Under the pieces are notes generated by a model, which saw only the letters and a program-made list of their open reading frames with translations, was not told the origin of the DNA and ran no database searches. The translations under genes and the position numbers were made by a program. A stretch of DNA of 64,000 nt from Escherichia phage EAWsc9, in the sequence record PQ341120.1, one strand, 5' to 3'. The number at the start of each line of letters is the position of its first letter. The stretch's first letter is position 1. Positions 2,133-51,637 of this stretch are shown here, in pieces.

Positions 2133-4847
2133 TTAAAAATCAAACATATCAAAAAGAGATGCTTTTTTCTCGTAATCAACCTTAGCTGCTTCAGAGAACC
2201 CTGTTAACGGTTTGACAAAAGTCTTCTGGAACAGTGTGTTGTAGTCCATCCACTGCAGAACCTGGTCACGGATTTCAATCGGGAGTTCAATCCCTGATGG
2301 CCATGCAATCACGGTTTCGCCAAACGGGTTACCAACTTTAAGAGGAAGCACATACACCTTTTCCCCTTCCATGATTTGTGGAACAGTCTTCAGACCTTTA
2401 GTTGCACGCATATATGCAAGCACACCTTTGATATGAGCCGGGCACTTAAATCCAGGGAAACCACCCTCATTATATTTCTGAATGTTGTTAACCGATGATA
2501 CACCTGCGATGGTCATGTAGTTAAGCTCATTAAATTCCTTATTGAATTCCTTGAAGTATGTCTGCAGAGATTCTTCACCTTCTTGCAGCATGCGACGGAT
2601 ACATTCTTTCAGAGCTTTCTGGCATGCTTTTGGTGTACTCGACTTTTGAGTTTCCAGACCCATGATTTTCAGTTTCGGAACAGCATATCGTGTGCCTTCC
2701 ATATCGTACACGTTCAGAGCATAACGCTTCTTCGCCGTCCAGAATCCACCAACACCTTTAGAACCCAGCGGAGGGCATGCAATCGCTTCACGGTCCATAA
2801 ACATAAGGTGCTGTTTGTTGTTCATGTATTCAGCCAGCTCACGGAAAGCTTTATCGATTGCCGGTTCCAGACGGTCTTTCGCAAACTTGTCCATGAAGTC
2901 AACCAGGTGGTTTGTATCGCGGAATTTAGATTCACCACCAACCTTTTTAATCAGGTTATCGCACTGAATATAAATGGAGTCAGTATCGCCATAGAATACA
3001 TATGTTTCACCACTTGTACCACAAACACTATCAAAATATTCGTTAACTTTACGCTCAATCCACTGCAATGCAAGTTGTCCGAAAGATGTAATCGCGGTTG
3101 CATTTCGCAGGTCAAAGTAACGGAACCAGATATTACCCAGAGCGCCATAACAACTGTTGATAAGCAGTTTACGGTTAATCTGTGCGGTCATACCTGCAAC
3201 TTCTTCCATCTGCGCTTTGTACAACATACCATTCAGAACTGTTTGATTCAGACCGTGCAAGGTTGTTTTCATATTGTCATCGAAGTCATAACGATAATCA
3301 ACTTCAGGCTCGGTTGTACCAGCTCCTGGATTACGCAGAGCTTCCTTAATCAGTTCACCATTACGTTGAGCCGCAAGCATATAACCTTTGTGCTCTTTAC
3401 GCTGATTAAACACCTTGGTGACTTCTGTCGGAATAATACCTGCAACATCTTTAAAATACATCATGCCATTTGGAGCACAACTAAATGTATCGGATGGACG
3501 GTCAGCGGTTCCTGCGATGTATTCGTACATTGGCGCTGGTGCAAATGAGCCGGCAATCGTTTCTGGACTGATGTTAATCTGTCGGATGATGCTCGGATAC
3601 AGAGATGTTAAGTCACAGCTCATAACGTATTTGTATGCGTTTGGAATCGGTTCCTTAACAAATGCACCAGGGAACGATTGGCGAACATGCGATTTGGTTT
3701 CCGGAATGACTTTGTTTTGAGTCTTCAGGCTGTTAAAGATAATCGCATCCCAAGTTTTGATTGGGCTGAATACAGACTGAATCTGCATTTTTGCGTAATA
3801 ACCCATTGACTGACTAAGGTTAATAAACTGACGCTTACGGTCAATCTGTACAACACGATAAACATCGATGATGTTATAAGAAATATACCGTTGGTGATTT
3901 GATTCACGCAGTTTAGAAATCGGACCATCATACGGGAGTTTACCAACACCTAGCTCAGATTCTGCAACATAATCCAACGAATAAGATGGTTGGTTTGTGA
4001 AGCTGAACTTTTTGTACAGGTCCAGATAATCCAGAACAGAGATACCCAGAATCTGAATGATTTCTTGTTCTTCACCGAAGCCGTTGTTAATGACCTTAAC
4101 TTTTGTACGACGATGTGGGCTCAAACGTTTTGCCGTAGCTTCACCAAATACATTTTTAAGGCGGTTGTAGATATATGGAATATCAAACTTCTCGATGTTC
4201 CAACCAGTTAACATAACCGGAGTTTTCTCGTTCCAGAATACCAAATACTGCTGGAGCATTTCTTCTTCTGAATCGAAAGCCATATAAACAATTTTTTCCA
4301 GGATTTCTTCAGGGACTTCATCGCCGCCATCTTCTTGCAGCTTAGCAGCAATATCGATAGACCATTGCTCCACAGTGGCGTATGGTGAGCTCAAAAGGTC
4401 AAAGACATAGAATTTATCGTCTATCGAATCATAGTGCGTCAGGGCATCAATAGGGTGACGTGCTTCAGACGGCTCAGGGAACCCATCAGGAGATGTCACC
4501 TCGATATCGAAGTTAGCCACACGGATTTTACTTGAATCGTATTTGATTTCGTGCGGGTAACGGTCGGACAAGTATGCGAGTTTAAAGTCATCCATACCCA
4601 TAGCTTCGAGACCCATGTCATTCATTCGCTTCATCCACTGGGATGCATCACGCATGGAATCGAATTCTTTTTTCACACAACCTTTATTATAGATGTCTGT
4701 ATATTTTGCAGCCTGGTCTTCGCGGGCATGCATAAACAGGCATGGAGCATAGGGGATTTCACGAACACGTTCATGACCGTTCTTGTCAATGTATCGTTCG
4801 AGCAGATTGTCACCGATTTGTTCGATAGTTAAATAAAATTCTTGCAT
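2133..4847 (-). CDS. 43: DNA polymerase gp43 (family B, with 3'-5' exonuclease)
   Basis: 904 aa; MQEFYLTIEQIG..., DIE exo motif, SLYPSII, YGDTDS polymerase motif; high similarity to RB69/T4 gp43 from recall. Confidence 0.97.
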   Translation of the reverse strand: MQEFYLTIEQIGDNLLERYIDKNGHERVREIPYAPCLFMHAREDQAAKYTDIYNKGCVKKEFDSMRDASQWMKRMNDMGLEAMGMDDFKLAYLSDRYPHEIKYDSSKIRVANFDIEVTSPDGFPEPSEARHPIDALTHYDSIDDKFYVFDLLSSPYATVEQWSIDIAAKLQEDGGDEVPEEILEKIVYMAFDSEEEMLQQYLVFWNEKTPVMLTGWNIEKFDIPYIYNRLKNVFGEATAKRLSPHRRTKVKVINNGFGEEQEIIQILGISVLDYLDLYKKFSFTNQPSYSLDYVAESELGVGKLPYDGPISKLRESNHQRYISYNIIDVYRVVQIDRKRQFINLSQSMGYYAKMQIQSVFSPIKTWDAIIFNSLKTQNKVIPETKSHVRQSFPGAFVKEPIPNAYKYVMSCDLTSLYPSIIRQINISPETIAGSFAPAPMYEYIAGTADRPSDTFSCAPNGMMYFKDVAGIIPTEVTKVFNQRKEHKGYMLAAQRNGELIKEALRNPGAGTTEPEVDYRYDFDDNMKTTLHGLNQTVLNGMLYKAQMEEVAGMTAQINRKLLINSCYGALGNIWFRYFDLRNATAITSFGQLALQWIERKVNEYFDSVCGTSGETYVFYGDTDSIYIQCDNLIKKVGGESKFRDTNHLVDFMDKFAKDRLEPAIDKAFRELAEYMNNKQHLMFMDREAIACPPLGSKGVGGFWTAKKRYALNVYDMEGTRYAVPKLKIMGLETQKSSTPKACQKALKECIRRMLQEGEESLQTYFKEFNKEFNELNYMTIAGVSSVNNIQKYNEGGFPGFKCPAHIKGVLAYMRATKGLKTVPQIMEGEKVYVLPLKVGNPFGETVIAWPSGIELPIEIRDQVLQWMDYNTLFQKTFVKPLTGFSEAAKVDYEKKASLFDMFDF

Positions 4848-4908
4848 TTGGTTTCCTTTATAGTCGAGTGATTGACTTTTGTTTTATGACTTGATGCTAT
4901 TATACTAC

Positions 4909-11644: not shown

Positions 11645-11826
11645 AAGCCAAGCGCCGTTATCGCAATGCAAAATAAAATTATTGAAATGAACCCGTCAGG
11701 AGTAGAAAAGAATCCTATCCAACAAGCTCGTGTGAATGTGTAGAATGCCATGAATAACACGACATATCCTAAAAATAATACCATATACTCTCCTCAGTTG
11801 GTTCATTTTATCATCCCGAATATAAA

Positions 11827-11852
11827 GCAAAAAAGGAAGCACTAGGCTTCCT
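11827..11852 (-). terminator. Rho-independent terminator-like hairpin
   Basis: Minus strand aggaagcCTAGTgcttcct followed by tttttt. Confidence 0.45.
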
Positions 11853-13442: not shown

Positions 13443-13490
13443 ATCGCCTCGCTTAGTATATGAATATTATATCATCCTTAATACAAAGCA

Positions 13491-14587: not shown

Positions 14588-14659
14588 GATATATTCCTCA
14601 GTCTCATTAAATTAAAATTTTATTATCCTGGGGCCATTATACCATGACCCCGTTGATTT

Positions 14660-15720: not shown

Positions 15721-15751
15721 TATGTTTTCCTCATCATTAGTTGATGGGATA

Positions 15752-15781
15752 ATGATACACCGTTCAAAGGGGCTTGTACAC
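15752..15781 (-). promoter_or_regulatory. Early sigma70-type promoter (GTGTAC-18-TATCAT) overlapping a hairpin
   Basis: Minus strand aaaaggggtGTGTACaagccccttt...TATCAT then conserved leader tcccatcaac. Confidence 0.4.
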
Positions 15782-23035: not shown

Positions 23036-23093
23036 AGTGTTCTCCTCATAAAGTAGGAATTCATTATACTCCCTCCATCCTTGGAAGTAAACA

Positions 23094-25033: not shown

Positions 25034-25096
25034 AATAATTTCCTCAATAGATTAATCAAAGGTCAGAACCATTATACCATCCTTGGTATAAAGCGT

Positions 25097-25621: not shown

Positions 25622-25689
25622 TTTATTCTCCAGTATTTGGTAACTCAGTATGGGAACATTATACGCCCATCCCCATACCATGTACACAT

Positions 25690-25992
25690 TTAATTAAAAG
25701 TTCTTTCAGTATTTTCACCACTGAACCAGACGCTCTTAACGGCTTGCTGGGCGCGATGTAGCTGCTCTGCCATATAAACACCAAGGGCCTCAGCCTTACG
25801 TGTCCTGTGGGCTTCTGCGGCGACTATTTGCAACTTATCCATCATGATAAGAGCTTTACATTTCTCCTTCAGAGCATATCGCTTCTTCTCTTCTGGAGTT
25901 TTGACCATTCCTCTTAACTTGTGCATTTTCAACTTAAAATGGTCAGCAGATTTCAGACATGCCTCAATCATGTCAAGTTCATACTTTTTCAT
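25690..25992 (-). CDS. Hypothetical protein
   Basis: 100 aa ORF. Confidence 0.5.
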   Translation of the reverse strand: MKKYELDMIEACLKSADHFKLKMHKLRGMVKTPEEKKRYALKEKCKALIMMDKLQIVAAEAHRTRKAEALGVYMAEQLHRAQQAVKSVWFSGENTERTFN

Positions 25993-25998
25993 AATTCC

Positions 25999-26205
25999 TC
26001 ACTTGCGACGACGTTTTGGTAATGGTTTAGGGAAGAACATTGCTTTACCTGCAGGGGTCAAAGTCACACGCAAAGCATTACCAATACCAAGGGATGCTTT
26101 AACCAGACCTTTGGCTTTTAACTCACCAAATGCTTGACGTTGTTCAGGGTCACGAGTGTTAACCATCAGACCTTTTTCACCAGCAGCTTTGATTAATTCT
26201 AACAT
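25999..26205 (-). CDS. Hypothetical small basic protein
   Basis: 68 aa ORF preceded by conserved leader cassette. Confidence 0.5.
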   Translation of the reverse strand: MLELIKAAGEKGLMVNTRDPEQRQAFGELKAKGLVKASLGIGNALRVTLTPAGKAMFFPKPLPKRRRK

Positions 26206-26246
26206 TTTATTCTCCGTTTGTTTATTTGGTAACTCAGTATGAAATC

Positions 26247-26276
26247 ATTATGCATCATGACCATCTGGTTGTACAC
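26247..26276 (-). promoter_or_regulatory. Early promoter (GTGTAC-18-CATAAT) of repeated cassette family
   Basis: Same cassette recurs at 25622-25690, 45004-45086, 45555-45636, 46063-46140. Confidence 0.4.
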
Positions 26277-26322
26277 ATATACTAAATAAAAATACTTAAT
26301 AAAACCATAAAGGAGAAAGTTT

Positions 26323-27069
26323 ATGATTTTATCCGGAAGAACTGTTGATGAACTCAATGAAAAAGTCCAGGCTGCCTTGGCTAATAATTGGTATTTGTTT
26401 GGTTCTACTATGGTGTTGCCGAATACCCCTACAGATAGCAAAGAGCGTTTTTTCCAAACTATGTCCAGCTCGGAAACTCAGATACCGGGCCCGCCTGGGC
26501 CAAAAGGAGACCCGGGTGTACCAGGACCAAAAGGAGACCCAGGCGGGGATGGAAAGTCTTCTTATCAGATATGGCTTGACTTGGGAAATACAGGAACTGT
26601 TGATGATTTTTTAACTGATACAGCAGGAAAGAGGGAAAAATCCGAGGTGTTTTGGAGTGGTATAAACGTTCTATTAACTAATGGTACGACTTCAAACATA
26701 ATTAGTGTTTTAAAGGGGATTCCACCGACTGCAGGGACTCTATCTCCGTTTTTTAGAACCACTGATGATAAGTTGTGGCCATATAACCAAGACAGAAGCC
26801 TAATGTTTAAACTCAACCTTATTGGTAATTTTGCAGGAGCCTCGCAAGCTCGAAGTATAACATTAAATTTCGTTGGAACCAACGGAAACACTTATATACA
26901 GAATCGTCCGGAAAATGCTACAGATATTTTGTCTTTTACAACGTTCTTTAGCATTGATAAAGATGGGGCAATGGCAACCAATGGTACAGCTATAACTGTT
27001 ATGCCAAATGGCGGCAACTTTACAATAACCTCTGCATTGTTAGTAGCCGAACAAACAGTGACTTCATAA
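26323..27069 (+). CDS. Collagen-like repeat protein with fibre-type C-terminal domain
   Basis: 248 aa plus-strand ORF; AGGAG 6 nt upstream of ATG; eight G-X-Y triplets (GPPGPKGDPGVPGPKGDPGGDGKS) then S-x-Y-Q-I-W-L motif typical of phage fibre proteins. Confidence 0.7.
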   Translation: MILSGRTVDELNEKVQAALANNWYLFGSTMVLPNTPTDSKERFFQTMSSSETQIPGPPGPKGDPGVPGPKGDPGGDGKSSYQIWLDLGNTGTVDDFLTDTAGKREKSEVFWSGINVLLTNGTTSNIISVLKGIPPTAGTLSPFFRTTDDKLWPYNQDRSLMFKLNLIGNFAGASQARSITLNFVGTNGNTYIQNRPENATDILSFTTFFSIDKDGAMATNGTAITVMPNGGNFTITSALLVAEQTVTS

Positions 27070-30521: not shown

Positions 30522-30546
30522 GTTCTCCTCAGTAGTTGATGGGATA

Positions 30547-30576
30547 ATAGTACACCCTTTTTATGAGGATGTAAAC
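30547..30576 (-). promoter_or_regulatory. Early sigma70-type promoter (GTTTAC-18-TACTAT)
   Basis: Followed by conserved leader tcccatcaactactgaggag. Confidence 0.4.
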
Positions 30577-34149: not shown

Positions 34150-34608
34150 TTAGATATAAATCACTTTTGTGCTAATTTTTCCTTCCAGACGATTAGAGTT
34201 AACAAACGCCATACGACAACACATGGTCGGAGACTTCCCAGGAATAGCGGGGTTAACTGTCATTCCTAACCATAGGTTCTTGTCCGTGATTTCCAGACGA
34301 AGTGGACGGTAGTTCACATTCGGGTCAATTTGTGCTTCAACTTCCGGGAGTGGTTTCATCTCCAAGAATTCAACGATTTCTTTTACATGTGGTGTGATTT
34401 TTCCAAACAAGTCAAAAACATATTGTTCATCAATTTCACGTTGGATTGCACGGTCCAACAGGTGCGGACTGTACTTAATGAAGAATGCTTCAAGGCCTGC
34501 TTCTTTACAAGCCTTGTTGATAGCATTATTAATTTTGAGGAACTCCGTTTCAAAAATGCGACGAAGTTTATTGCGGCGAATGTAAACACTTGAATCGATA
34601 GTAGTCAT
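34150..34608 (-). CDS. regB: RegB endoribonuclease
   Basis: 152 aa from internal ATG with AGGAG; MTTIDSSVYIRRNKLRRIFETEF...HLLDRAIQREIDE colinear with T4 RegB. Confidence 0.88.
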   Translation of the reverse strand: MTTIDSSVYIRRNKLRRIFETEFLKINNAINKACKEAGLEAFFIKYSPHLLDRAIQREIDEQYVFDLFGKITPHVKEIVEFLEMKPLPEVEAQIDPNVNYRPLRLEITDKNLWLGMTVNPAIPGKSPTMCCRMAFVNSNRLEGKISTKVIYI

Positions 34609-34664
34609 GATTATCTCCTTTTGTTTGATGGGATAATCATAACTCATTTCAATCTGCTTGTACA

Positions 34665-35244
<580 letters not shown>

Positions 35245-36425: not shown

Positions 36426-36686
36426 TTACGCTTTACCGCCGGAAACAATACCAAAGGTCTCAAAGTCCCATTCAATATCATCAACATCAACTTTCTTACC
36501 AGCAACCACGAATGCGATTTCGCGACGTTTTGCATAGGTGACAATTTCTTTACCATCACCACCAAAGAAAGAATAACCATTGCGCTTCATGGTGCCAAAG
36601 TCTTCAGCATCGCCAGCAAAGGCGCGAACTTTAAAAGCACCAGTAGGAGCTTTGGCTTCTGTGATAAATTCTTGATAAGTTTTCAT
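36426..36686 (-). CDS. Internal protein (IP-type, capsid-targeting N-terminus)
   Basis: Start set to internal ATG giving MKTYQEFITEAKAP...; T4 IP capsid-targeting consensus MKTYQEFIAEA; own early promoter upstream. Confidence 0.7.
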   Translation of the reverse strand: MKTYQEFITEAKAPTGAFKVRAFAGDAEDFGTMKRNGYSFFGGDGKEIVTYAKRREIAFVVAGKKVDVDDIEWDFETFGIVSGGKA

Positions 36687-36716
36687 TTTATATTCCATTG
36701 TTTGGTTGATAAAATC

Positions 36717-36746
36717 ATTATACAACCTTTTTAGTTAAGCGTACAC
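36717..36746 (-). promoter_or_regulatory. Early promoter (GTGTAC-18-TATAAT) overlapping denV 3' end
   Basis: Minus strand GTGTACgcttaactaaaaaggttgTATAAT upstream of IP gene. Confidence 0.45.
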
Positions 36747-37151: not shown

Positions 37152-37177
37152 GTTTGTTCTCCGTAGTTGATAGGGTC

Positions 37178-37207
37178 ATTATAACCCTATCATTTGGAGA
37201 TGTACAC
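37178..37207 (-). promoter_or_regulatory. Early promoter (GTGTAC-18-TATAAT) upstream of denV
   Basis: Minus strand GTGTACatctccaaatgatagggtTATAAT; hairpin in spacer. Confidence 0.45.
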
Positions 37208-39685: not shown

Positions 39686-39744
39686 AATATTTTCCTCATT
39701 GATTGTGGGACCATTGTGTCATAGTCCCACTTGGATGTACACAC

Positions 39745-41096: not shown

Positions 41097-41160
41097 TTTT
41101 ATTCTCCTGTTCTGATAACGTGATTGTCATCAGTTGATAGGAGTATAGTAACACAGTTTT

Positions 41161-41505
41161 TTAGACTTGTATACTGCTTCTACAATATTCTAAAAATAAT
41201 TTATCGTTGTTTACCTTATCCCAACGACGCCAAGATGGATTCCAGACCAGAGCGTTGTCACCGCAATCATTGAGCTTAAAGTGGTCGTAGTACATAGCTA
41301 TATGTCTGGTTTCGTCACCAGAGAACCCCAGTATATGCTCACCGTGGGTATGATACATATGATGATGCATTGAGAGGTCGCATTTGTAAAACATCTCACG
41401 TTTACCACGAACGAACAAGAAGGCTTGCTCATTCATATAGAATTCTTTATCTGTTTTCAAAAGATATTTGAATACCGAATCTTTATGCATAATTCCTCCT
41501 ACCAC
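41161..41505 (-). CDS. Hypothetical His-rich protein
   Basis: 114 aa; cluster MHHHMYHTHGEH suggests metal binding. Confidence 0.5.
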   Translation of the reverse strand: MVGGIMHKDSVFKYLLKTDKEFYMNEQAFLFVRGKREMFYKCDLSMHHHMYHTHGEHILGFSGDETRHIAMYYDHFKLNDCGDNALVWNPSWRRWDKVNNDKLFLEYCRSSIQV

Positions 41506-41748: not shown

Positions 41749-41966
41749 GAGCTCGGGTACCAGATTTTACCGTCGGCGCGGGCAACGAAGGTACGACCAG
41801 CTTCTTCGCCGTAACAAGAGCTATTCAGCCAATCTTCAAGACGAACTTCACCGTCATAATCATCTAGCTCAACACCAAAATCCTGAGCAGAAGCCATATC
41901 TTTTACTTTCTTATACAGGGCAGCCAGTTCAAGAGCAGCTTTTTCTAATTCGTTAATATCAGTCAT
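41742..41966 (-). CDS. Small protein ending W-Y-P-S-S-C (paralog family member)
   Basis: 74 aa; C-terminus ...GKIWYPSSC. Confidence 0.55.
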   Translation of the reverse strand: MTDINELEKAALELAALYKKVKDMASAQDFGVELDDYDGEVRLEDWLNSSCYGEEAGRTFVARADGKIWYPSSC

Positions 41967-41976
41967 TTTTTATTCC

Positions 41977-42189
41977 TTAGCATTCGTAAGAGGAGGACAC
42001 CCAAGAGGTACCACTAATTGTAATACAACCATTATAAAGCGTGATATGTCGTTCTAAGTCACGAACACCATCAATGTAGATATCAGCTTCTTCGCGTTCT
42101 TCTTTACAAATCTGGATAACATTTTCAATAGCTGCCGCGGCAGTACGGATTGCACAATCTAATTCACGAGACATAACATTCCTTAACAT
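41977..42189 (-). CDS. Small protein ending W-V-S-S-S-Y-E-C (paralog family member)
   Basis: 70 aa; C-terminus ...SWVSSSYEC. Confidence 0.55.
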   Translation of the reverse strand: MLRNVMSRELDCAIRTAAAAIENVIQICKEEREEADIYIDGVRDLERHITLYNGCITISGTSWVSSSYEC

Positions 42190-42464
42190 TCAGCAGAAGA
42201 GGACACCCAACCACCATTTTCCAGGTCAGTTGTATAGTCATGAGTATTAACAATAGCCCATTCAGGATGACCATGTTCTTCCCAATGAGCAAGGTCAGCT
42301 TTCAGGGCGCCAGGAGAATAATAGTCACCGCCCATACCGCGAGCAGGGTATATATTAAAATGAGTCTCATATTTGTCTGCAATTTCCTCGGCACGACGAA
42401 TAGCTTTATGGATGTCATTTACTGCGTTAGCCAGTTCTTTATTTTTACGGTAATCATTCATCAT
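42183..42464 (-). CDS. Small protein ending W-V-S-S-S-A-E-C (paralog family member)
   Basis: 93 aa; C-terminus ...GGWVSSSAEC; shares EEIADxY core with next gene. Confidence 0.55.
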   Translation of the reverse strand: MMNDYRKNKELANAVNDIHKAIRRAEEIADKYETHFNIYPARGMGGDYYSPGALKADLAHWEEHGHPEWAIVNTHDYTTDLENGGWVSSSAEC

Positions 42465-42473
42465 AACGTTTCC

Positions 42474-42764
42474 TTAGCACATTGCCGAAGAGGAGACCCA
42501 AGCACCAACTGTAACGACACCGTTTTCAACTTCACCGCCGTTGTTTTCAATTTCATCTTTAAACCACTGGGAGCACTCATAACCGACAGGATAATATGTA
42601 CGGCCTGAACCATAATCACCGGTACCGAATTGGATACCATATTCATCTGCGATTTCTTCACAGTGTTTTTCAATTTCAGAGGTCTTATTTAGAAGAGAAT
42701 AGATGGCTTTTTCTGCAGATTTCTCATCATAATACTTGGGGATAGCAATTTCAATTTTATTCAT
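42474..42764 (-). CDS. Small protein ending W-V-S-S-S-A-M-C (paralog family member)
   Basis: 96 aa; C-terminus ...GAWVSSSAMC. Confidence 0.55.
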   Translation of the reverse strand: MNKIEIAIPKYYDEKSAEKAIYSLLNKTSEIEKHCEEIADEYGIQFGTGDYGSGRTYYPVGYECSQWFKDEIENNGGEVENGVVTVGAWVSSSAMC

Positions 42765-43460: not shown

Positions 43461-44007
43461 TTTGAACCCCTTTAGCATATTCACGACATTCAGCAATAAA
43501 ACGATTAAGCTTACGTTTCCGTTTACGACCCTCTAATGTGTACTCAGCCGCCAAATCAAGAAGCTCATCTTTATCATAATTTTTAATATCAGTATAAGTT
43601 GGGCGGCGGTCAACCATTCCAAAGTGGTCACCATTTTCCAACATCAAATAACACACCAAATGGTCATCATCGTCCGCATTAATAAGCTGCTTATAATCAC
43701 TTGGTTCATTTAACGCATACACAGAATAACTCAGCCCAGCGAATTCCACTCGTTGAATACCCAGATTTACGTCAATAATTTCCAAGGCATCTGCAAAAGA
43801 AAGGTCTTCAGCTAAAGCAAAAATAAAAGGCAATTTGGTAGTATCGCCGCGACTTGTTGTTCTTCTTAAGAAATCATTGGAATAACCCAAGTCGCGGCGG
43901 ATTCTATAAAGAACTGTGTTAGTTTCAGTGGCAAGACCACTACCGCCAAACCATTCCACATTTGATAAAAGATTATCATATAAAGTCATAATTTTCTCCT
44001 CTCCCAA
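43435..44007 (-). CDS. Hypothetical protein with C-terminal FIAEC motif
   Basis: 190 aa; ends ...KLNRFIAECREYAKG... Confidence 0.5.
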   Translation of the reverse strand: MGEEKIMTLYDNLLSNVEWFGGSGLATETNTVLYRIRRDLGYSNDFLRRTTSRGDTTKLPFIFALAEDLSFADALEIIDVNLGIQRVEFAGLSYSVYALNEPSDYKQLINADDDDHLVCYLMLENGDHFGMVDRRPTYTDIKNYDKDELLDLAAEYTLEGRKRKRKLNRFIAECREYAKGVQNANAISAK

Positions 44008-44031
44008 TTAGGGGGCTTTGCCCCCTTTATC

Positions 44032-44625
44032 TTACTTAAGTGAATTGATGTATTCTTCAATGTCAGCGGACGTGGTATCCACACCAACCTGTGGACCTTT
44101 GAAGGTTTCAACACGCATCAAGGTGTCTTCAATATCAATCTTAGTCAATGCAGCGATTTCAACAACATCATCTGCAGTCGCAATACCCAGGGCAGATACC
44201 TTACGGGTTTCGCGGATGTATTCCAGTTTAACAGCTAGTTCCTGACGAGAATCATCCAGCTCTTTAACTTTCAATTTAATTTCATTACGCATTTCAACAT
44301 AATCGTCTGCCTTCTTACGAAGTTGTTTAGCAGTGCGACGATACAGGAGACCCAGTTTAGCATGGACCTGGACATCCGCACCATCAGCAATCAGTTTGCG
44401 GATTTCACGCTCTTTTGAGGCGGCAAGTTGGTCTTTTTCATTCGCTAACTCGCGGATGCGTTTTTCTTCATTAACAGACTTAACGTGGGCGGTCTGGAGC
44501 TCAGTAATCTTGTCAATCAGGGTAGACGCCGCTTGAGTATATTGGTCTTCAATAGACAGGTTTTTTGCCATTGCAGTACCCAGTTTGGAGCGGATGAATT
44601 CAACAAGTTTCTTTAAAGTATTCAT
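44032..44625 (-). CDS. Coiled-coil protein, tentatively PspA/IM30-like
   Basis: 197 aa, almost entirely heptad-type helical sequence with N-terminal amphipathic helix; family assignment tentative. Confidence 0.45.
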
Positions 44626-44697
44626 GGTATTTCCTTCAGTTGGTTAATGTTTTATTATCCAGGGAACATACTATCATGTTCCCATTAAAGCACTAAT

Positions 44698-45003
44698 TTA
44701 GATTTTGTTTTCCTGCACACCATAATAAAGTTCATCAGACACAATATCCAGGATGCGGCGAACATATTCATCATGGTATTGGCAGTCAAAATCAAATGCA
44801 ACAGTAGTTTCCGCTTCACGAGTGAATTTAACTTGCACATTCAGGTGATTAACAACGTTAGTTAATTTATCAGTAAAGAACTCTTTTGCTACCGCCTGTT
44901 GGACTTGCACTTTAAACTTGGTGTTGCGAATCATATTTTCAGCAGATGCGAAATTACCAGTTTTATCAAAGTCAACAAGCGCCAGGTTGATGATGAATTT
45001 CAT
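44698..45003 (-). CDS. Hypothetical protein behind repeated promoter/leader cassette
   Basis: 101 aa ORF. Confidence 0.5.
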   Translation of the reverse strand: MKFIINLALVDFDKTGNFASAENMIRNTKFKVQVQQAVAKEFFTDKLTNVVNHLNVQVKFTREAETTVAFDFDCQYHDEYVRRILDIVSDELYYGVQENKI

Positions 45004-45086
45004 TTTATTCTCCAGTGTTTTATTTGGTAACTCAGTATGGAATCATTATGCCTTAAAGCAGGGGGCTTGTATACCCCCTTTTTGAA

Positions 45087-45554
45087 TTAAATTTCAAATT
45101 CTTTGCGGAAGTTGGAAGCATAAGACTGAACTGATGCTTTGTTGAATCCAAACTCACGCACAATCATATCAATAACAGCTCTGCGAGCAGCACCATTAGA
45201 CATATTAACAGTTTTGAACATATCATAGCATAAATCTTTGTTGCTCATACCGGAGCGTTTAGGTGCCTTACGTTCAGCTTTTGGTTCAGCTTTTGGTTCA
45301 GCTTTTGGTTCAGCTTTAGGAGTAGGTTTAACTTCTGGTTTAACCTGTCCATCATTCAGACCTTTAAAAATTTTACCTGCCAGAGTTGCCAGTTTAGCAG
45401 CTTCGCCACGAGTGATACCAAATACTGCCGGGTTAAATGAAATACCTTCAGCTGCCAGACGTTTGAAGAACATACGTGCTGCGGATTGTGCTTCAGCTTC
45501 AGAAGAGTTGTTTAATGCCAGCTTAACGTACTTAACCAGTTTTGAAGTTTTCAT
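45087..45554 (-). CDS. Hypothetical protein with (PKAE)n repeat and conserved C-terminal domain
   Basis: 155 aa; PKAEPKAEPKAEPKAERKAPKR linker; C-terminal GAARRAVIDMIV...VQSYASNFRK shared with 45637..46062. Confidence 0.55.
   Translation of the reverse strand: MKTSKLVKYVKLALNNSSEAEAQSAARMFFKRLAAEGISFNPAVFGITRGEAAKLATLAGKIFKGLNDGQVKPEVKPTPKAEPKAEPKAEPKAERKAPKRSGMSNKDLCYDMFKTVNMSNGAARRAVIDMIVREFGFNKASVQSYASNFRKEFEI
45277..45318. repeat. 12 bp tandem repeat (about 3.5 copies) inside CDS
   Basis: gcttttggttca x3 plus partial copy; encodes the PKAE repeats on the minus strand. Confidence 0.8.
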
Positions 45555-45595
45555 TTTATTCTCCAGTGTTTTATTTGGTAACTCAGTATGGGATA

Positions 45596-45625
45596 ATTAT
45601 ACACTATCCCACCTGGAAGTAAAAC
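45596..45625 (-). promoter_or_regulatory. Early promoter (TTTTAC-17-TATAAT) of repeated cassette family
   Basis: Minus strand gtgTTTTACttccaggtgggatagtgTATAAT followed by conserved leader. Confidence 0.4.
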
Positions 45626-45636
45626 ACTTTTCTCAA

Positions 45637-46062
45637 TTATTTTTGAGCTTTGCGGAAGTTGGAAGCATATGACTGAACAACAGTCTTTTTGATATCATAG
45701 GTGTTAACCAGAACATCAATCAGGGCGCGGCGAGCTGCACCATCTGCCATATCAATTTCTGCAAATGCCTGGAAGCAAATGTCACGAGCATTACCAGATT
45801 TGGACTGGATTTTTTCTTCTTTAACTTCTTCAATTGGGAATTCAATCATTTCAGCTTGGATTAATTCAATGATAGATTCTTTTGACTGTTTGGTGTTTAC
45901 CTTCAGTTCAGAATTAAGGGACTTAGCGATGGCAACAATCTGGGTTGAAGTCAGATGAATAAGTGCATCTTCACGAATGCAGATTTCACATACTTCGTCG
46001 GCAACCATTTTGTTAGTGATGCGGGTAACAGAGAATGCAGAAGTCAGGGTCAGGAAGTTCAT
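45637..46062 (-). CDS. Hypothetical protein, paralog of 45087..45554 C-terminal domain
   Basis: ORF 45637..46143 (non-ATG start codon) trimmed to ATG preceded by conserved leader ...ggagaaataaaATG. Confidence 0.55.
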   Translation of the reverse strand: MNFLTLTSAFSVTRITNKMVADEVCEICIREDALIHLTSTQIVAIAKSLNSELKVNTKQSKESIIELIQAEMIEFPIEEVKEEKIQSKSGNARDICFQAFAEIDMADGAARRALIDVLVNTYDIKKTVVQSYASNFRKAQK

Positions 46063-46168
46063 TTTATTTCTCCAAAGTTTTGTTTGATTCAGTGTGTAAC
46101 TCAGTATGGAATCATTATGCATCCAGTCAATTCGGATGTACACTACTTTTTGAAGAAATATTAAAAAT

Positions 46169-46188
46169 AAACCCGCCGAAGCGGGTTT
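46169..46188 (-). terminator. Rho-independent terminator with UUCG tetraloop
   Basis: Minus strand aaacccgcTTCGgcgggttt followed by atttttaatattt. Confidence 0.55.
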
Positions 46189-46190
46189 GA

Positions 46191-46745
46191 TTAGTTCTTA
46201 TAAAAGCGGAACGGATTTATATGAAAGGCGAGCATAGCCTTAGGGATTGGTCGGGACAGAAGACTCTTGAGCTTCCAGCCACAATAAACACGCAGATAAA
46301 AGGTGATTCCACCGACCTTAAGATAAGGAACAGAAGCAAAAACACCCCAGGCATTATCCGTCCACATCCAGAGCCAGCCATGGTGAGCTTTGTCTGGGGA
46401 GCCGGATTCAACATCAGGATTACCTTTATAATGGAATTCTGAATTGCAATCACGACCAAGCTTGTGGTAAGCAAAATTGTATGCTTTATTTCGCCAGAGC
46501 CAGGCTACTCGTTGGAAGTAAACACCTAACGGCCATTTTCGGATTTTTGACCAACGTTCGACATGACCCCGGTCACCATCAATCGGATTGTCATATGTCA
46601 TCATCCAATCAAATCCGAACGGAAGTTTACCAGTCTTTTTATTATGGAATGGAACTACAAATGGAGCCAGGATAACGGCCAGAATCATGGAGATAAAATC
46701 CAGCGGAACTAACAGAATCCAACTCAAATATTTTAACAGTTTCAT
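46191..46745 (-). CDS. Hypothetical N-terminally membrane-anchored protein
   Basis: ORF 46191..46823 (non-ATG start codon) trimmed to internal ATG; MKLLKYLSWILLVPLDFISMILAVILAPFVVPF then W/H-rich soluble domain. Confidence 0.5.
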   Translation of the reverse strand: MKLLKYLSWILLVPLDFISMILAVILAPFVVPFHNKKTGKLPFGFDWMMTYDNPIDGDRGHVERWSKIRKWPLGVYFQRVAWLWRNKAYNFAYHKLGRDCNSEFHYKGNPDVESGSPDKAHHGWLWMWTDNAWGVFASVPYLKVGGITFYLRVYCGWKLKSLLSRPIPKAMLAFHINPFRFYKN

Positions 46746-46834
46746 ACGTTTCTCTTTAGTTGATTTATAAAAAAGCCCCAACCTTTCGGAAGGGGCTATA
46801 CCTTGTCGGGGTTCCACCTGCAAGGCAAGTGTTC

Positions 46835-47218
46835 TTATCCGCGAGCGAATGCCATTGCAGCGCGTTCGTTGGCACGGTCGGTGATGTTCAAGAATTTATC
46901 ACGAGCAATTTCGATTGGGGCGCCGACCCAGTCAGCAGCACCATTACCCGGAGACTGTTTAGGGCGAACCATATAAGTTGAAACTTTGGAACCAGCTAGT
47001 TTGGCACCTGGCGCCGCGGCATTTTTAACGTCTTTAGCTTTGATGCCAAACCCAGTTACGATACCCCAAGAAACGCCATTAACTGGTTTCTTGAACATAA
47101 CACGGTCACCAATTGAAACACCGGCTTTTTCTGGAGCCACTAAAGAAAATTTACCAGCTTCAGTCAGTACGGATTCGGTGATGGTATTGCGATTTAAAAA
47201 TTCTGCATATGTAAGCAT
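46835..47218 (-). CDS. Hypothetical late protein (possible IP-like N-terminus MLTYAEFL)
   Basis: 127 aa; perfect late promoter TATAAATA 32 nt upstream. Confidence 0.55.
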   Translation of the reverse strand: MLTYAEFLNRNTITESVLTEAGKFSLVAPEKAGVSIGDRVMFKKPVNGVSWGIVTGFGIKAKDVKNAAAPGAKLAGSKVSTYMVRPKQSPGNGAADWVGAPIEIARDKFLNITDRANERAAMAFARG

Positions 47219-47249
47219 TTTGTTTTTCCATTATTAGGGTTGTTGTTAA

Positions 47250-47257
47250 TATTTATA
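47250..47257 (-). promoter_or_regulatory. T4-type late promoter TATAAATA
   Basis: Minus strand TATAAATA upstream of 46835..47218. Confidence 0.6.
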
Positions 47258-47451
47258 TTCCATAGTACCGGATGCACCATCCGCTCGGATTTCTCATACT
47301 ACCGGACGCACCGTCCGCTCTGGAAAAACTCCGTTAAAAGGGTGCGCCGTTTCAGCTGTGGTAGTAAAGAACCAGAACACAGTAAAACTGTGGGAGGAAC
47401 TATACTTCAGGGAACTTCAGTCCGACGACTTACCGGTAGCGACCCGGTTTC

Positions 47452-47691
47452 TCATTCAATTGTAATAGCTAATTTGACTTTAACAACCTTATAATTGGAA
47501 TCAAGGTCATTGAATTCCATAAAATTTGTTGCTAATCTGCGAGTCGGGAAACTTAGATATTTATTATGCTCAGGTGGAGCAGTTAATGCAAACCATGGGA
47601 CTTGTTTATCATTTTCATCAAACTCATCAAAGCTATAAACCAGCTCGTTGTTGGTTATATCCATAACTGCATATGATTCACTAATAACCAT
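47452..47691 (-). CDS. Hypothetical acidic protein
   Basis: ORF 47452..47736 (non-ATG start codon, overlaps tRNA) trimmed to internal ATG with GAGGA upstream. Confidence 0.45.
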   Translation of the reverse strand: MVISESYAVMDITNNELVYSFDEFDENDKQVPWFALTAPPEHNKYLSFPTRRLATNFMEFNDLDSNYKVVKVKLAITIE

Positions 47692-47706
47692 AATATCCTC
47701 GGTAAT

Positions 47707-47783
47707 TGGTCGGGGTGGTGGGATTCTAACCCACAACCTACGGTTTAGAAGACCGTTGCTCTATACAATTGAGCTACACCCCG
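47707..47783 (-). tRNA. tRNA-Arg (anticodon UCU)
   Basis: Hand-folded cloverleaf: acceptor 7 bp, D stem gctc/gagc, anticodon stem acggt/accgt with loop cuUCUaa, T stem gtggg/cccac, encoded CCA; unusual D-loop and T-loop (U19/A56). Confidence 0.7.
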
Positions 47784-47859
47784 GGTGGCCCCATCCGGAC
47801 TTGAACCGGAAACCTGCCAGTTATGAGCCGGATGCTCTAACCAATTGAGCTACAGGGCC
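47784..47859 (-). tRNA. tRNA with anticodon CAU (Met or lysidine-modified Ile)
   Basis: Hand-folded cloverleaf: acceptor ggccctg/tggggcc, D-loop aattggtta, anticodon loop cuCAUaa, T arm tccgg-ttcaagt-ccgga; 3' end encodes CC only; abuts tRNA-Arg. Confidence 0.7.
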
Positions 47860-49304: not shown

Positions 49305-49332
49305 TTTATTCTCCTCAGTAGTTGATGGGATA

Positions 49333-49361
49333 ATTATACGCTATCCCATTCAAAAGTACAC
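49333..49361 (-). promoter_or_regulatory. Early promoter (GTGTAC-17-TATAAT)
   Basis: Minus strand GTGTACttttgaatgggatagcgTATAAT then leader tatcccatcaactactgaggag. Confidence 0.45.
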
Positions 49362-49616
49362 TTATTTTTTAGGGATACGATAGTAACGCATCTCAACATC
49401 TTTCTGCTTGTGCCACTTTTTGATAAGGTCTTCAGAACCTTTAATGGTAACGATGTCATAGCGACCATCATGCGATACTTCAGCACTTAACTGCATGAAG
49501 TTGTCTAGTGAACGGCGCAATTCCTCATTAGAAAAACTACCACGCGGGGAACCAACATAAGCAAACTCAACTTTTGCATCTGCGGCTTCGTTAATAAATT
49601 CTTGATAAGTTTTCAT
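49362..49616 (-). CDS. Internal protein (IP-type)
   Basis: 84 aa; N-terminus MKTYQEFINEAADAK matches T4 IP capsid-targeting sequence. Confidence 0.7.
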   Translation of the reverse strand: MKTYQEFINEAADAKVEFAYVGSPRGSFSNEELRRSLDNFMQLSAEVSHDGRYDIVTIKGSEDLIKKWHKQKDVEMRYYRIPKK

Positions 49617-49641
49617 GTTGTCTCCAGTAGTTGATGGGATA

Positions 49642-49671
49642 ATTATACTGCAGTTATCCCATCGCGTATAC
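49642..49671 (-). promoter_or_regulatory. Early promoter (GTATAC-18-TATAAT)
   Basis: Same cassette as 49333..49361. Confidence 0.45.
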
Positions 49672-49672
49672 T

Positions 49673-49915
49673 TTATTTTAAGTCTTCCAGACGTTTTTTC
49701 ATCTTGGTGCCATTCTTAGCAATTTCGCCAGCATCAGAACAAAGAGCGAGGAGAGCTTTAACTTTACCCTGGTCGCCTTTAAAAGATGATGCATCTACAG
49801 AATCAGCAAGTTCTTTGATACGTGCAAACAGGCGCTCTGCTTCAGCAAGGGCTTGGCCAAGTTTAACTTCCATACCATGGGAAGATTCTGTTATAAATGT
49901 TTGATAAGTTTTCAT
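49673..49915 (-). CDS. Internal protein (IP-type)
   Basis: Start set to internal ATG giving MKTYQTFITESSHG...; GGAGAcaacATG. Confidence 0.65.
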   Translation of the reverse strand: MKTYQTFITESSHGMEVKLGQALAEAERLFARIKELADSVDASSFKGDQGKVKALLALCSDAGEIAKNGTKMKKRLEDLK

Positions 49916-49960
49916 GTTGTCTCCAAGCCATAAAAAGGGGATAATTATCCCCATTTGTTA

Positions 49961-50268: not shown

Positions 50269-50541
50269 CTATTTTAAATAAATTGCATATTTTTTATAAC
50301 CAGCCGTCTCATGACGGAGACCCTTGTCATTGGCAAAACGCTCAATGTTATTAATTTGGTTCTGGTCAAGTTCTGAAATGTCAAACGCGAAAAAGTTGCG
50401 TTTGTTGCCAATTGTTATATGGTCAGTTAAGTCAATGCTATACAGGTGATTGATATTGTCAATCATAGCTTTGACCGCTTTACTAATTTTTACTTCTTCA
50501 TTCAGTTGTGACTCGTTGAAAAATTCATTGAAAGTTTTCAT
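50269..50541 (-). CDS. Internal protein (IP-type)
   Basis: 90 aa; N-terminus MKTFNEFFNES. Confidence 0.65.
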   Translation of the reverse strand: MKTFNEFFNESQLNEEVKISKAVKAMIDNINHLYSIDLTDHITIGNKRNFFAFDISELDQNQINNIERFANDKGLRHETAGYKKYAIYLK

Positions 50542-50882: not shown

Positions 50883-50946
50883 ATTAACTCCGTTTGTTCA
50901 TTCGTTGGTGTAGGAACATAATACTGTACCTACACTTATTTGTACA

Positions 50947-51637
<691 letters not shown>

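Follow-up and report, generated by a model that had tools for sequence, protein, structure and literature searches.

Why does nearly the same element of about 75 base pairs (bp) stand in front of one small gene after another in a phage genome? The question is raised by positions 44698–46143 of a 64,000-nucleotide (nt) stretch of DNA from Escherichia phage EAWsc9 (sequence record PQ341120.1), which was analysed at its full length and is called the window here. This region holds three small genes on the minus strand, designated C, A, and B, each of which is preceded by such an element, and an initial annotation of the sequence had read the elements as early-promoter and leader cassettes that resemble the promoter early stem-loop (PeSL) modules of T4-type phages. 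The analysis described below indicates that they are very probably PeSL-type early-gene expression cassettes of a T4-like Gaprivervirus phage. Comparison of the sequences showed a repeated architecture, covariation of hairpin arms, leader ends that match the RegB consensus, a regB gene in the same window, and chimeric junctions in relatives.

The five copies that had been listed were all recovered on the minus strand where the initial annotation had placed them, at 25622–25687, 26206–26276, 45004–45074, 45555–45624, and 46063–46143. Its reading of a -35 and a -10 box held as well, in that an independent generic sigma-70 scan of 44698–46143 returned exactly the three cassette sites. A repeat finder recovered both this family (family 1) and the second one that had been proposed (family 2; repeats D1/D3 and D2/D4). 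The family-1 core, the 14-mer CCATACTGAGTTAC, is present in the five cassettes as four exact copies and one with a single mismatch; with up to two mismatches allowed there were seven matches against 0.31 expected, and no shuffle reached seven. The family-2 core TATCCCATCAACTAC has four copies at one mismatch or fewer and six minus-strand copies at three or fewer, with seven matches in total against 1.84 expected, a number reached by one of 100 shuffles. Family 2 had been said to precede at least eight genes; the coordinates given for it are all genuine promoter-like sites, each with an SD (Shine–Dalgarno motif) and ATG directly downstream, but the count of eight needs the degenerate members 2130, 41174, 34665, and 37207 (cassettes are named here by their upstream coordinate on the minus strand, for example, 45074, 37207, and 39742).

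A loose -35/-10 regular expression run over the window was uninformative (41 minus-strand matches vs about 24 in shuffles), and promoter-like sites were kept as cassettes only with an A-rich tract upstream and a Shine–Dalgarno (SD) motif plus ATG downstream. The early strand carries 17 such minus-strand cassettes, which read GTxTAC, N17-18, TAnnAT, and then SD and ATG, and all 17 have an SD-like motif and an ATG 22–45 nt from the -10. Their consensus is AAaAg..GTgTACA..(spacer)..GTATaATgATcCCATcaac; the -35 variants in family 1 are GTGTAC, GTATAC, and TTTTAC, the spacing is 17–18 nt, and the -10 is TATAAT or CATAAT. The 30 nt upstream of the cassette promoters are 72% A+T, compared with 60% across the window, with an AAaA consensus directly 5' of the -35. 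Both families have one promoter design and a common start box, kATyCCAT, the main difference being the length of the leader (about 22 nt in family 2 and about 35–45 nt in family 1). The start box is not specific to early promoters, because the MotA-type promoter of uvsX has the same box (TATCCTATC). The 50-nt family-1 leader occurs in 9–12 places per Gaprivervirus genome, and in some other T4-like phages it is found as single copies with 82–88% identity, one of which, in Morganella phage MP1, carries the annotation "promoter". An Rfam search of the whole window at gathering thresholds, and of 44500–47800 at E up to 1, returned two tRNAs and a chance PrrF hit only, and no Rfam family in that search covered the cassette leaders.

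The cassette of gene C (101 amino acids [aa]; 44698–45003) spans 45004–45086 and includes an A-tract; its -10, CATAAT, lies at 45045–45050, the predicted transcription start (+1) is near 45038, and the leader extends to 45004. A hairpin with the arms AGGGGG/CCCCCT (45060–45079) holds the -35, GTATAC (45069–45074), in its loop, and the SD, GGAGAAUAAAA (45003–45013), runs into the AUG. The cassette of gene A (155 aa; 45087–45554) spans 45555–45636, with a -35 of TTTTAC (45619–45624), a -10 of TATAAT (45596–45601), a hairpin that encloses the -10 (45584–45615; core TGGGATA/TATCCCA), and a family-1 leader whose SD is again GGAGAAUAAAA (45554–45564). In six relatives, this cassette drives an extra gene of 98 aa. 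The cassette of gene B (141 aa; 45637–46062) spans 46063–46143, with a -35 of GTGTAC (46138–46143), a -10 of CATAAT (46114–46119), a spacer hairpin (CATCCG/TGGATG, within 46116–46142), and a long family-1 leader ending in UUGGAGAAAUAAAAUG. Just 5' of it, the intrinsic terminator AAACCCGCttcgGCGGGTTT with its T-run (46169–46188) ends the upstream membrane-protein gene. On the other side of the region, a degraded cassette precedes e.6 (44626–44697), in which a hairpin, GGGAACAT/ATGTTCCC (44662–44683), surrounds TAGTAT and the leader-like CUGGAUAAUAAAAC is kept; its -35 has been lost by a 4-nt deletion and is intact (GTGTAC or GTTTAC) in phages TH22, VR25, VR26, VR20, and TH54. All of these features are on the minus strand, as are the cassettes listed later.

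The initial annotation had remarked that the spacer often forms a stem-loop, and this proved to be statistically solid. When the span from -8 of the -35 to +14 past the -10 was folded in the 17 cassettes, the mean folding z-score was −1.77; z was below −2 in eight cassettes, and in 12 the folding energy was −10 kcal/mol or lower. The hairpin loop contains the -10 hexamer in eight cassettes, with the 5' arm in the spacer and the 3' arm formed by the start box, and elsewhere the stem lies round the -35 (45074, 15781) or inside the spacer (46143, 2130). We then compared the best Watson–Crick stem between the spacer of a cassette and its own box after the -10 with the stems formed by permuted partners. 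The stem was 5.29 bp for own partners and 4.08 bp for mismatched ones (p about 1e-4), and shuffled spacers gave 3.79 ± 0.21 bp; for 22 non-redundant cassettes, some of them from relatives, the values were 5.45 and 4.10 bp, and the observed mean was not equalled once in 50,000 permutations. The two arms also change together from one cassette to another, as in GGGATA/TATCCC, GATAGGGT/ACCCTATC (37207), GTGGGAC/GTCCCAC (39742), and GTGTAGGTAC/GTTCCTACAC (50947), with cassette 37207 carrying changes that compensate for one another relative to the GGGATA/TATCCC type.

The leaders were equally distinctive at their 3' ends. An alignment of 39 distinct family-1 sequences showed three tight blocks, namely the -10, the start box yCCATACTGAGTTAC, and GGAGAATAAAATG, and a middle part that varies by indels of 0–9 nt and by single-nucleotide polymorphisms (SNPs). 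In T4, the strong RegB/S1 sites in the initiation regions of early genes have the consensus GG*AGRAYARAA, secondary structure protects against RegB cleavage, and regB itself is expressed from an early promoter with a GGAG SD that RegB cleaves (reviewed in PMC2988021 and PMC3014915). The invariant leader end GGAGAAUAAAA equals this consensus at 11 of 11 positions. Exact matches to GGAGRAYARAA numbered six in the window against 0.30 expected, and all six were on the minus strand, where each forms the last 11 nt of a cassette leader. Of the 17 cassette genes, 13 have GGAG in the SD, compared with 10 of 85 other early-strand genes (p 2e-7). RNAs beginning at the predicted +1 folded with 0 to −2.7 kcal/mol (z +0.4 to +1.5), no better than shuffles, and are predicted to be unstructured. 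Furthermore, regB (34150–34608) is present in the window (Pfam PF10715, 2.2e-72), behind a family-2-type cassette of its own (34609–34665) with the SD AAGGAGAU. The common post-transcriptional control suggested in the initial annotation is thus plausible in view of the GGAG SDs and the six RegB-consensus leader ends, although the regulator whose binding it had proposed to assay, RegA, is the less likely of the two, because the leader end matches the RegB consensus and regB lies in the window. Judged by sequence, the suspected control is most likely cleavage by RegB; RegA is a possible leader regulator, for which there is no sharp motif to compare.

The same elements were examined in the e.6-to-tRNA interval of nine relatives (TH22, P8, TH54, MN01, VR20, VR25, SP18, VR26, and RZ). 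The initial annotation had expected the cassettes to accompany genes that vary among relatives, and here single cassette-flanked genes do come and go, with several of the junctions inside cassettes. Between B and A, the 98-aa gene is present in TH22, P8, TH54, MN01, VR20, and VR25 and absent from the window, SP18, VR26, and RZ, and the alignment revealed two different junctions for its loss. One is that of the window, where gene A follows the upstream cassette in full, down to the leader end GGAGAATAAA, after a crossover in AATAAAATG. The other is that of SP18 and VR26, in which gene A retains its own leader and only the promoter half comes from the upstream cassette, the crossover having fallen in 23 identical nucleotides, CCATACTGAGTTACCAAATAAA. 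The SD of gene A accordingly differs among phages, with the RegB consensus in the window and in ECML-359 and GGGAUAAUAAAA at the same place in the other relatives compared, and on this comparison of sequences the RegB-consensus SD of gene A is an acquisition by recombination. Phage RZ lacks gene C, and its junction lies in CTGGAkAATAAAA, which is common to the C leader and the e.6 leader. An extra 132-aa gene is found between C and e.6 in VR20 and TH54. In SP18, cassette 39742 has an insertion between its -35 and its SD that consists of gp131 (74 aa) with a family-1 -10 and leader, and another SP18 cassette is a mosaic, its promoter half being of the 25687 type and its leader half of the 26276 type. 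At the level of sequence, cassette-mediated homologous exchange is demonstrated for specific events, and there are other sources of variation besides.

To place these events in a wider setting, indels were counted across the 51-kb early region in comparison with SP18, VR20, and ECML-359. Of 27 indel events, 11 had a breakpoint no more than 15 nt from a cassette, compared with 7.6% expected under a uniform null (p 2e-6). This enrichment is not relied on, because about half of the spacers of at least 40 nt are cassettes and both kinds of spacer are broken about equally; it is the junction sequences, therefore, that carry the case for cassette shuffling. For indels outside the region of genes C, A, and B, junction repeats of 25–35 nt occurred at the SDs of cassettes and in internal-protein genes at their conserved 5' ends, the remaining junction homologies being 13 nt at a tandem-paralogue junction near 41951 and 6–9 nt in the others. 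The copy number of internal-protein genes varies among relatives through exchange in these conserved 5' ends; SP18, for example, lacks the MKTYQTF gene (ATG 49915), with a junction repeat of 25 nt.

Several observations weigh against the interpretation of these elements as PeSL-type cassettes that turn genes on, off, and over. Five of the 17 cassettes (46143, 41174, 34665, 26276, and 23092) have no convincing hairpin, with z near 0 or positive. No U-run follows the promoter-embedded hairpins among the minus-strand hairpins of 43900–47300, where only 46169–46188 qualifies as an intrinsic terminator, so that the embedded hairpins do not resemble efficient intrinsic terminators; terminator-like hairpins with a T-run were limited to 46169–46188 and a remnant at 49930–49952. 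The TGn of an extended -10 was read from the alignment in only two of 17 cassettes (41174 and 39742). The GGAG and RegB-site counts are not independent observations, because the copies are related by descent and gene conversion. When spacers of at least 40 nt were tallied by hand, breakpoints fell in 10 of 18 cassette spacers and 10 of 21 others, and most indels in the window lack long junction homology (6–9 nt, the chance level), so that recombination between cassettes explains only part of the variability. Promoter activity, the position of +1, and RegB cutting are themselves read from consensus sequences.

Other explanations have been considered for parts of this pattern. The repeats could be no more than the upstream regions of locally duplicated genes, the promoter and leader having been copied in tandem without any role as recombination modules. 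Genes A and B are indeed paralogous, with 42% identity over their C-terminal 86 aa (E 7e-20) and a common 31-nt stretch at their 3' ends (97% identity; repeat D15). However, the same leader stands before unrelated genes up to 20 kb apart (C, the 98-aa gene, SP18 gp131, the NrdC.8-like gene, and the 68-aa gene), the leaders of C and A are 96% identical even though their proteins are unrelated, and both the 9–12 copies per genome and the existence of chimeric cassettes also speak against a duplication origin, which we consider barely credible. As the whole explanation, tandem duplication is ruled out by the presence of the same leader before unrelated genes. Recombination or gene conversion between copies might instead account for the uniformity of a leader and start box that have no function in the RNA. 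The reassortment of promoter and leader halves, the free variation in the middle of the leader (in both length and SNPs), and the near identity of copies within one genome would all follow from such homogenisation, but conservation is concentrated in three blocks that correspond to known signals (the -10, the start box, and GGAGAAUAAAAUG) while the sequence between them drifts. The start box, moreover, recurs at promoters with unrelated leaders and at the MotA-type promoter of uvsX, and GGAG is strongly over-represented compared with other genes on the same strand, which makes this an unlikely account.

The leader might also be kept constant by a translational regulator acting at the start codon, RegA or another repressor, rather than by RegB cleavage. 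Annotated regA genes are present in ECML-359, SP18, and VR20 at the position matching about 5.1–5.6 kb of the window, and known RegA sites are A/U-rich, unstructured, and inclusive of the AUG with a 5' A-run, a loose description that AAUAAAAUGAAA and the unstructured leaders fit; this is weak evidence, because RegA has no sharp consensus. The RegA sequence from in vitro selection (SELEX), AAAAUUGUUAUGUAA, is not matched, the invariant block begins at GGAG and agrees with the RegB consensus throughout, and the RegA targets named in the review (rIIB, 44, and dexA) are not small early genes of the cassette type. Control of this kind therefore seems improbable as the reason for the constancy of the leader. 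A less probable proposal still concerns the hairpins, which might act as DNA, either as cruciforms that expose the -10 or as substrates that endonuclease VII cuts to start recombination, and not as attenuators in RNA. The presence of the -10 in the loop of eight cassettes, the annotation of gp49 (endonuclease VII) in SP18 and VR20 at the position matching about 19 kb of the window, and one RB49 mini-circle crossover that was mapped to a hairpin loop (PMC2839356) would be in keeping with it. In the present data, by contrast, the junctions lie in the leader or start box and not in loops, and two natural variants (GGATG to GGGTG at cassette B and TATCCC to TATCTC in RZ) make a stem pair G-T, which pairs as G-U in RNA and is a mismatch in DNA. 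The variable position of the hairpin (at the -35, the spacer, or the -10) also fits a position-independent RNA element better.

Returning to PeSL-type expression cassettes, analogy with T4 and RB49 biology suggests how they may work. Host RNA polymerase would fire the sigma-70 cassette promoters immediately after infection. With the -10 in the loop and the start box, which is transcribed, as the 3' arm, both arms of the hairpin would be present only in transcripts that read through from upstream; the hairpin could thus attenuate or mark read-through and insulate neighbouring one-gene units. A few minutes into infection, RegB, together with ribosomal protein S1, would cut inside the SD and turn the messages off, and the combination of early promoter and RegB shut-off would give a short pulse of early expression. 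The 25–50 nt of near-identical sequence between copies would serve as a substrate for homologous recombination, and crossovers in the start box or leader would delete, insert, or swap single small genes and reassort promoter halves with leader halves, which would make recombination a cause of the indels.

We tentatively raise a broader possibility, which is doubtful as yet, that the cassette is a complete and portable "pulse" module with an on switch (the promoter) and an off switch (RegB/S1), in which the hairpin separates read-through from local copies and recombination reassorts regulation. As the hairpin would form only in read-through RNA, the phage could treat read-through and locally initiated copies differently. 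If so, recombination in the leader would reassort regulatory properties in addition to moving genes, the SD of gene A being an example. More generally, the exchange of cassettes may also carry the signal for early shut-off between genes, given that a perfect RegB site forms the invariant end of the leader. It has been proposed that PeSLs drive gene turnover in the variable regions of T4-type phages, a group in wide therapeutic use; the present locus offers a clean natural case of them from a genus without an earlier description, in which the same gene has been lost via two crossover points. The current picture of T4 biology is unchanged by these results.

The remaining cassettes stand before genes of varied kinds. 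Those of family 1 had been placed before different ORFans, which holds for the three genes of the region and the 68-aa gene (25999–26205), all of them in PHROGs of unknown function (phrog_7474 for C, phrog_18416 for A, and phrog_9997 for B); it does not hold for A and B in the strict sense, as they are paralogues, and it fails for the cassette at 25622–25699, whose 174-aa gene sits where ECML-359 annotates a homologue of T4 NrdC.8. A Pfam search of the family-1 genes gave no match. In the cassette at 25622–25699, the hairpin encloses the -10 and the leader ends in GGAGAAUAAAA. The cassette of the 68-aa gene (26206–26288) has an upstream edge that coincides with a breakpoint of a segment of about 1 kb, absent in VR20 and replaced in SP18. 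This segment, whose edge abuts cassette 26276, holds an opposite-strand ORF (open reading frame) of 248 aa inside the early region (26323–27069, plus strand), which has a collagen-like Gly-X-Y run and a C-terminus that matches phrog_1030, "tail needle knob" (3e-67).

Family-2 cassettes include several that precede conserved genes: imm (2064–2130, family-2 type, with the spacer hairpin ACGGCAA/TTGCCGT) and a MobD.5-like gene (30522–30576), both identified by position against ECML-359; regB, identified by Pfam; and a gene read as denV (37152–37207), named from its N-terminal sequence and the gene order of ECML-359 and SP18. In the last of these, the -10 is enclosed by the hairpin GATAGGGT/ACCCTATC, and VR20 carries an inserted gene at this cassette. 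Other family-2 cassettes lie at 49305–49361, before a 61-aa Trna.4-like gene (hairpin ATGGGATA/TATCCCAT round the -10; leader end GGAGAAUAAAA), at 49617–49671, before an internal-head-protein gene (MKTYQEF...; 9-bp hairpin round the -10), and at 15721–15781 (hairpin GGGG/CCCC round the -35), and a degenerate member at 41097–41174 ends in GGAGAAUAAAA. Further cassettes were found at 39686–39742 (GTGGGAC/GTCCCAC round the -10), at 50883–50947 (a 10-bp hairpin with one mismatch, GTGTAGGTAC/GTTCCTACAC, round the -10), at 36687–36746, before an internal-head-protein gene, where SP18 has an extra paralogue with a 35-nt junction repeat, and at 23036–23092, where an early-promoter cassette precedes a 329-aa gene inside the nrdC.1–nrdC.8 interval. 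A promoter-less remnant at 49930–49952 consists of the hairpin GGGGATAATTATCCCC with a T-run, followed by a cassette-type SD, UGGAGACAACAUG; it is a terminator-only element 5' of the MKTYQTF internal-protein gene (ATG 49915). That gene belongs to a family of small genes that begin MKT(Y/F)(Q/N)EF... (36426–36686, 49362–49616, 49673–49915, and 50269–50541), two of which, 36426–36686 and 49362–49616, were scanned and matched the internal head protein PHROGs 2667 and 8111.

Some elements resembled the cassettes in part. At 14588–14659, the same design occurs without a -35, a hairpin (GGGGTCA/TGGCCCC) surrounding TATAAT and AGGAUAAUAAAA following it; this may be a middle-type promoter or a remnant cassette. 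Middle-promoter-like spacers with a MotA box (TGCTT) were seen at 1082–1166, 11785–11841, 13443–13490, and 25034–25096. Three tandem small genes at 41950–42510 carry a repeated SD-proximal element, ATTCCTTAGCATTC...GAGGACACCCAA, on the plus strand (repeat D8), and the array is longer by one unit of about 250 nt in SP18 and VR20.

By the annotations of ECML-359 and SP18, the window covers the genome of a T4-like coliphage from uvsX to gp9, in T4 gene order, with both regA and regB inside it; as far as about 53.7 kb, the minus strand carries the early and middle genes, and the late genes lie on the plus strand beyond. Positions 44600–46200 share 93.5–98% nt identity with about 30 genomes of coliphages, Shigella phages, and Yersinia phages of about 170 kb, the best match being ECML-359 (98.1%), and the matched genomes that have a taxonomy line (SP18, VR20, VR25, VR26, and RZ) are assigned to Straboviridae, Tevenvirinae, genus Gaprivervirus. 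Genes C, A, and B lie between e.6 (44032–44625) and the membrane-protein gene, which adjoins two tRNA genes (47707–47859). Homologues of gene C occur only in Gaprivervirus and in Krischvirus (the RB49 group; RB49 ORF198, about 46% aa identity). Gene A contains a perfect 12-nt tandem repeat of 3.8 copies (45272–45317) that encodes (AEPK)n, and the number of repeats varies, as the protein is 155 aa long here and 147 or 143 aa in relatives. For gene B, the mechanical ORF list gives a start at GTG 46143, which falls within the promoter, whereas the relatives annotate ATG 46062, which is most likely the true start. In Yersinia phage P8, the homologue of gene B (4384–4869) is annotated as two ORFs of 213 and 183 nt, with non-coding sequence between them by these ORF calls, and is apparently disrupted. 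Next to the tRNA genes, a GC-rich spacer of 233 nt (47219–47451) looks structured and had no Rfam match. The tRNA complement is Arg and Met here and Arg, Asn, and Met in SP18, and only Met is annotated in the VR26 stretch compared.

PeSLs have been defined by an AT-rich tract, a sigma-70-like early promoter, a stem-loop, and an SD with ATG (Arbiol 2010, PMC2839356; Comeau 2014, PMC4122927). They sit between ORFans in hyperplastic regions and mediate indels of single genes (PMC2839356; PMC4122927), and in RB49 mini-circles as well as promoter and terminator activity were demonstrated, with the mini-circle crossovers mapped between the -10 and the SD (PMC2839356). The resemblance proposed in the initial annotation extends to every sequence-level feature of this definition: promoter, A+T tract, stem-loop, SD and start codon, repetition, and crossovers at indels. 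The PeSLs of the Krischviruses RB49 and phi1 (PMC2839356) have the same layout, with the stem-loop between or over the -35 and -10 boxes, are likewise dispersed among small genes of unknown function, and are likewise associated with single-gene indels between close relatives whose crossovers lie between the -10 and the SD. Even the sequences are alike, in that the RB49 hairpin arms GGGGATAT/ATATCCCC resemble GGGATA/TATCCC and the start ATCCCCATC is also similar; RB49 ORF198, the homologue of gene C, follows TTGACA-N17-CATAAT with this hairpin round the -10 and this start. The -35 of RB49, however, is a near-perfect TTGACA, unlike the T4-type GTGTAC/GTTTAC found here, and Gaprivervirus has a long, nearly invariant family-1 leader ending in the RegB consensus, whereas the text of PMC2839356 makes no mention of RegB. 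The RB49 elements also have their mini-circles and activities to support them, whereas the cassettes of the window are known from their sequence.

In PST and T4, and also in nt-1 and KVP40, PeSLs are likewise associated with indels in hyperplastic regions (Comeau 2014, PMC4122927), and the PST/T4 promoter TTTACW-N17-TAYWAT is close to the GTGTACA-N17-TATAAT seen here. The stem-loops of PST and T4 lie just upstream of the promoter, whereas most of those described here overlap it, as in RB49. The "degraded" or half PeSLs of that study are paralleled by the e.6 element and the remnant at 49930–49952; the e.6 cassette is a "half PeSL" of this type, because the 4-nt deletion destroyed its -35. T4 early promoters (PMC2988021; PMC3014915) are likewise strong promoters of the sigma-70 type that have additional conserved positions and are A-rich upstream; their GTTTAC-like -35, TATAAT -10, and A-rich upstream element are matched here, whereas the T4-typical TGn is mostly lacking. 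The early leaders of T4 have GGAG-type SDs like those of the cassettes, as does T4 regB behind its early promoter, and the T4 RegB/S1 consensus is matched exactly by the putative sites of the window. Shuffling at the internal-protein (IP) loci of T-even phages, as represented by the citations of Repoila et al. (1994) in PMC2839356 and PMC4122927, is paralleled here by the gain and loss of internal-protein genes behind cassettes. At the IP-like loci of the window (36426–36686, 49362–49616, and the gene with ATG 49915), the junction repeats of 25–35 nt span the SD and conserved N-terminal codons; the exchange homology at these loci extends beyond the cassette into coding sequence for the conserved N-terminus. 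For the JS98 and VR7 groups, the literature yields one sentence only, on "PeSL-like sequences" near g43 of JS98 (PMC2839356). The cassettes of EAWsc9 are thus largely ordinary members of a class known from the 2010 and 2014 papers, in a genus not previously catalogued for them, to which the RegB-consensus end of the leader and the quantified covariation of the hairpin arms are modest additions.

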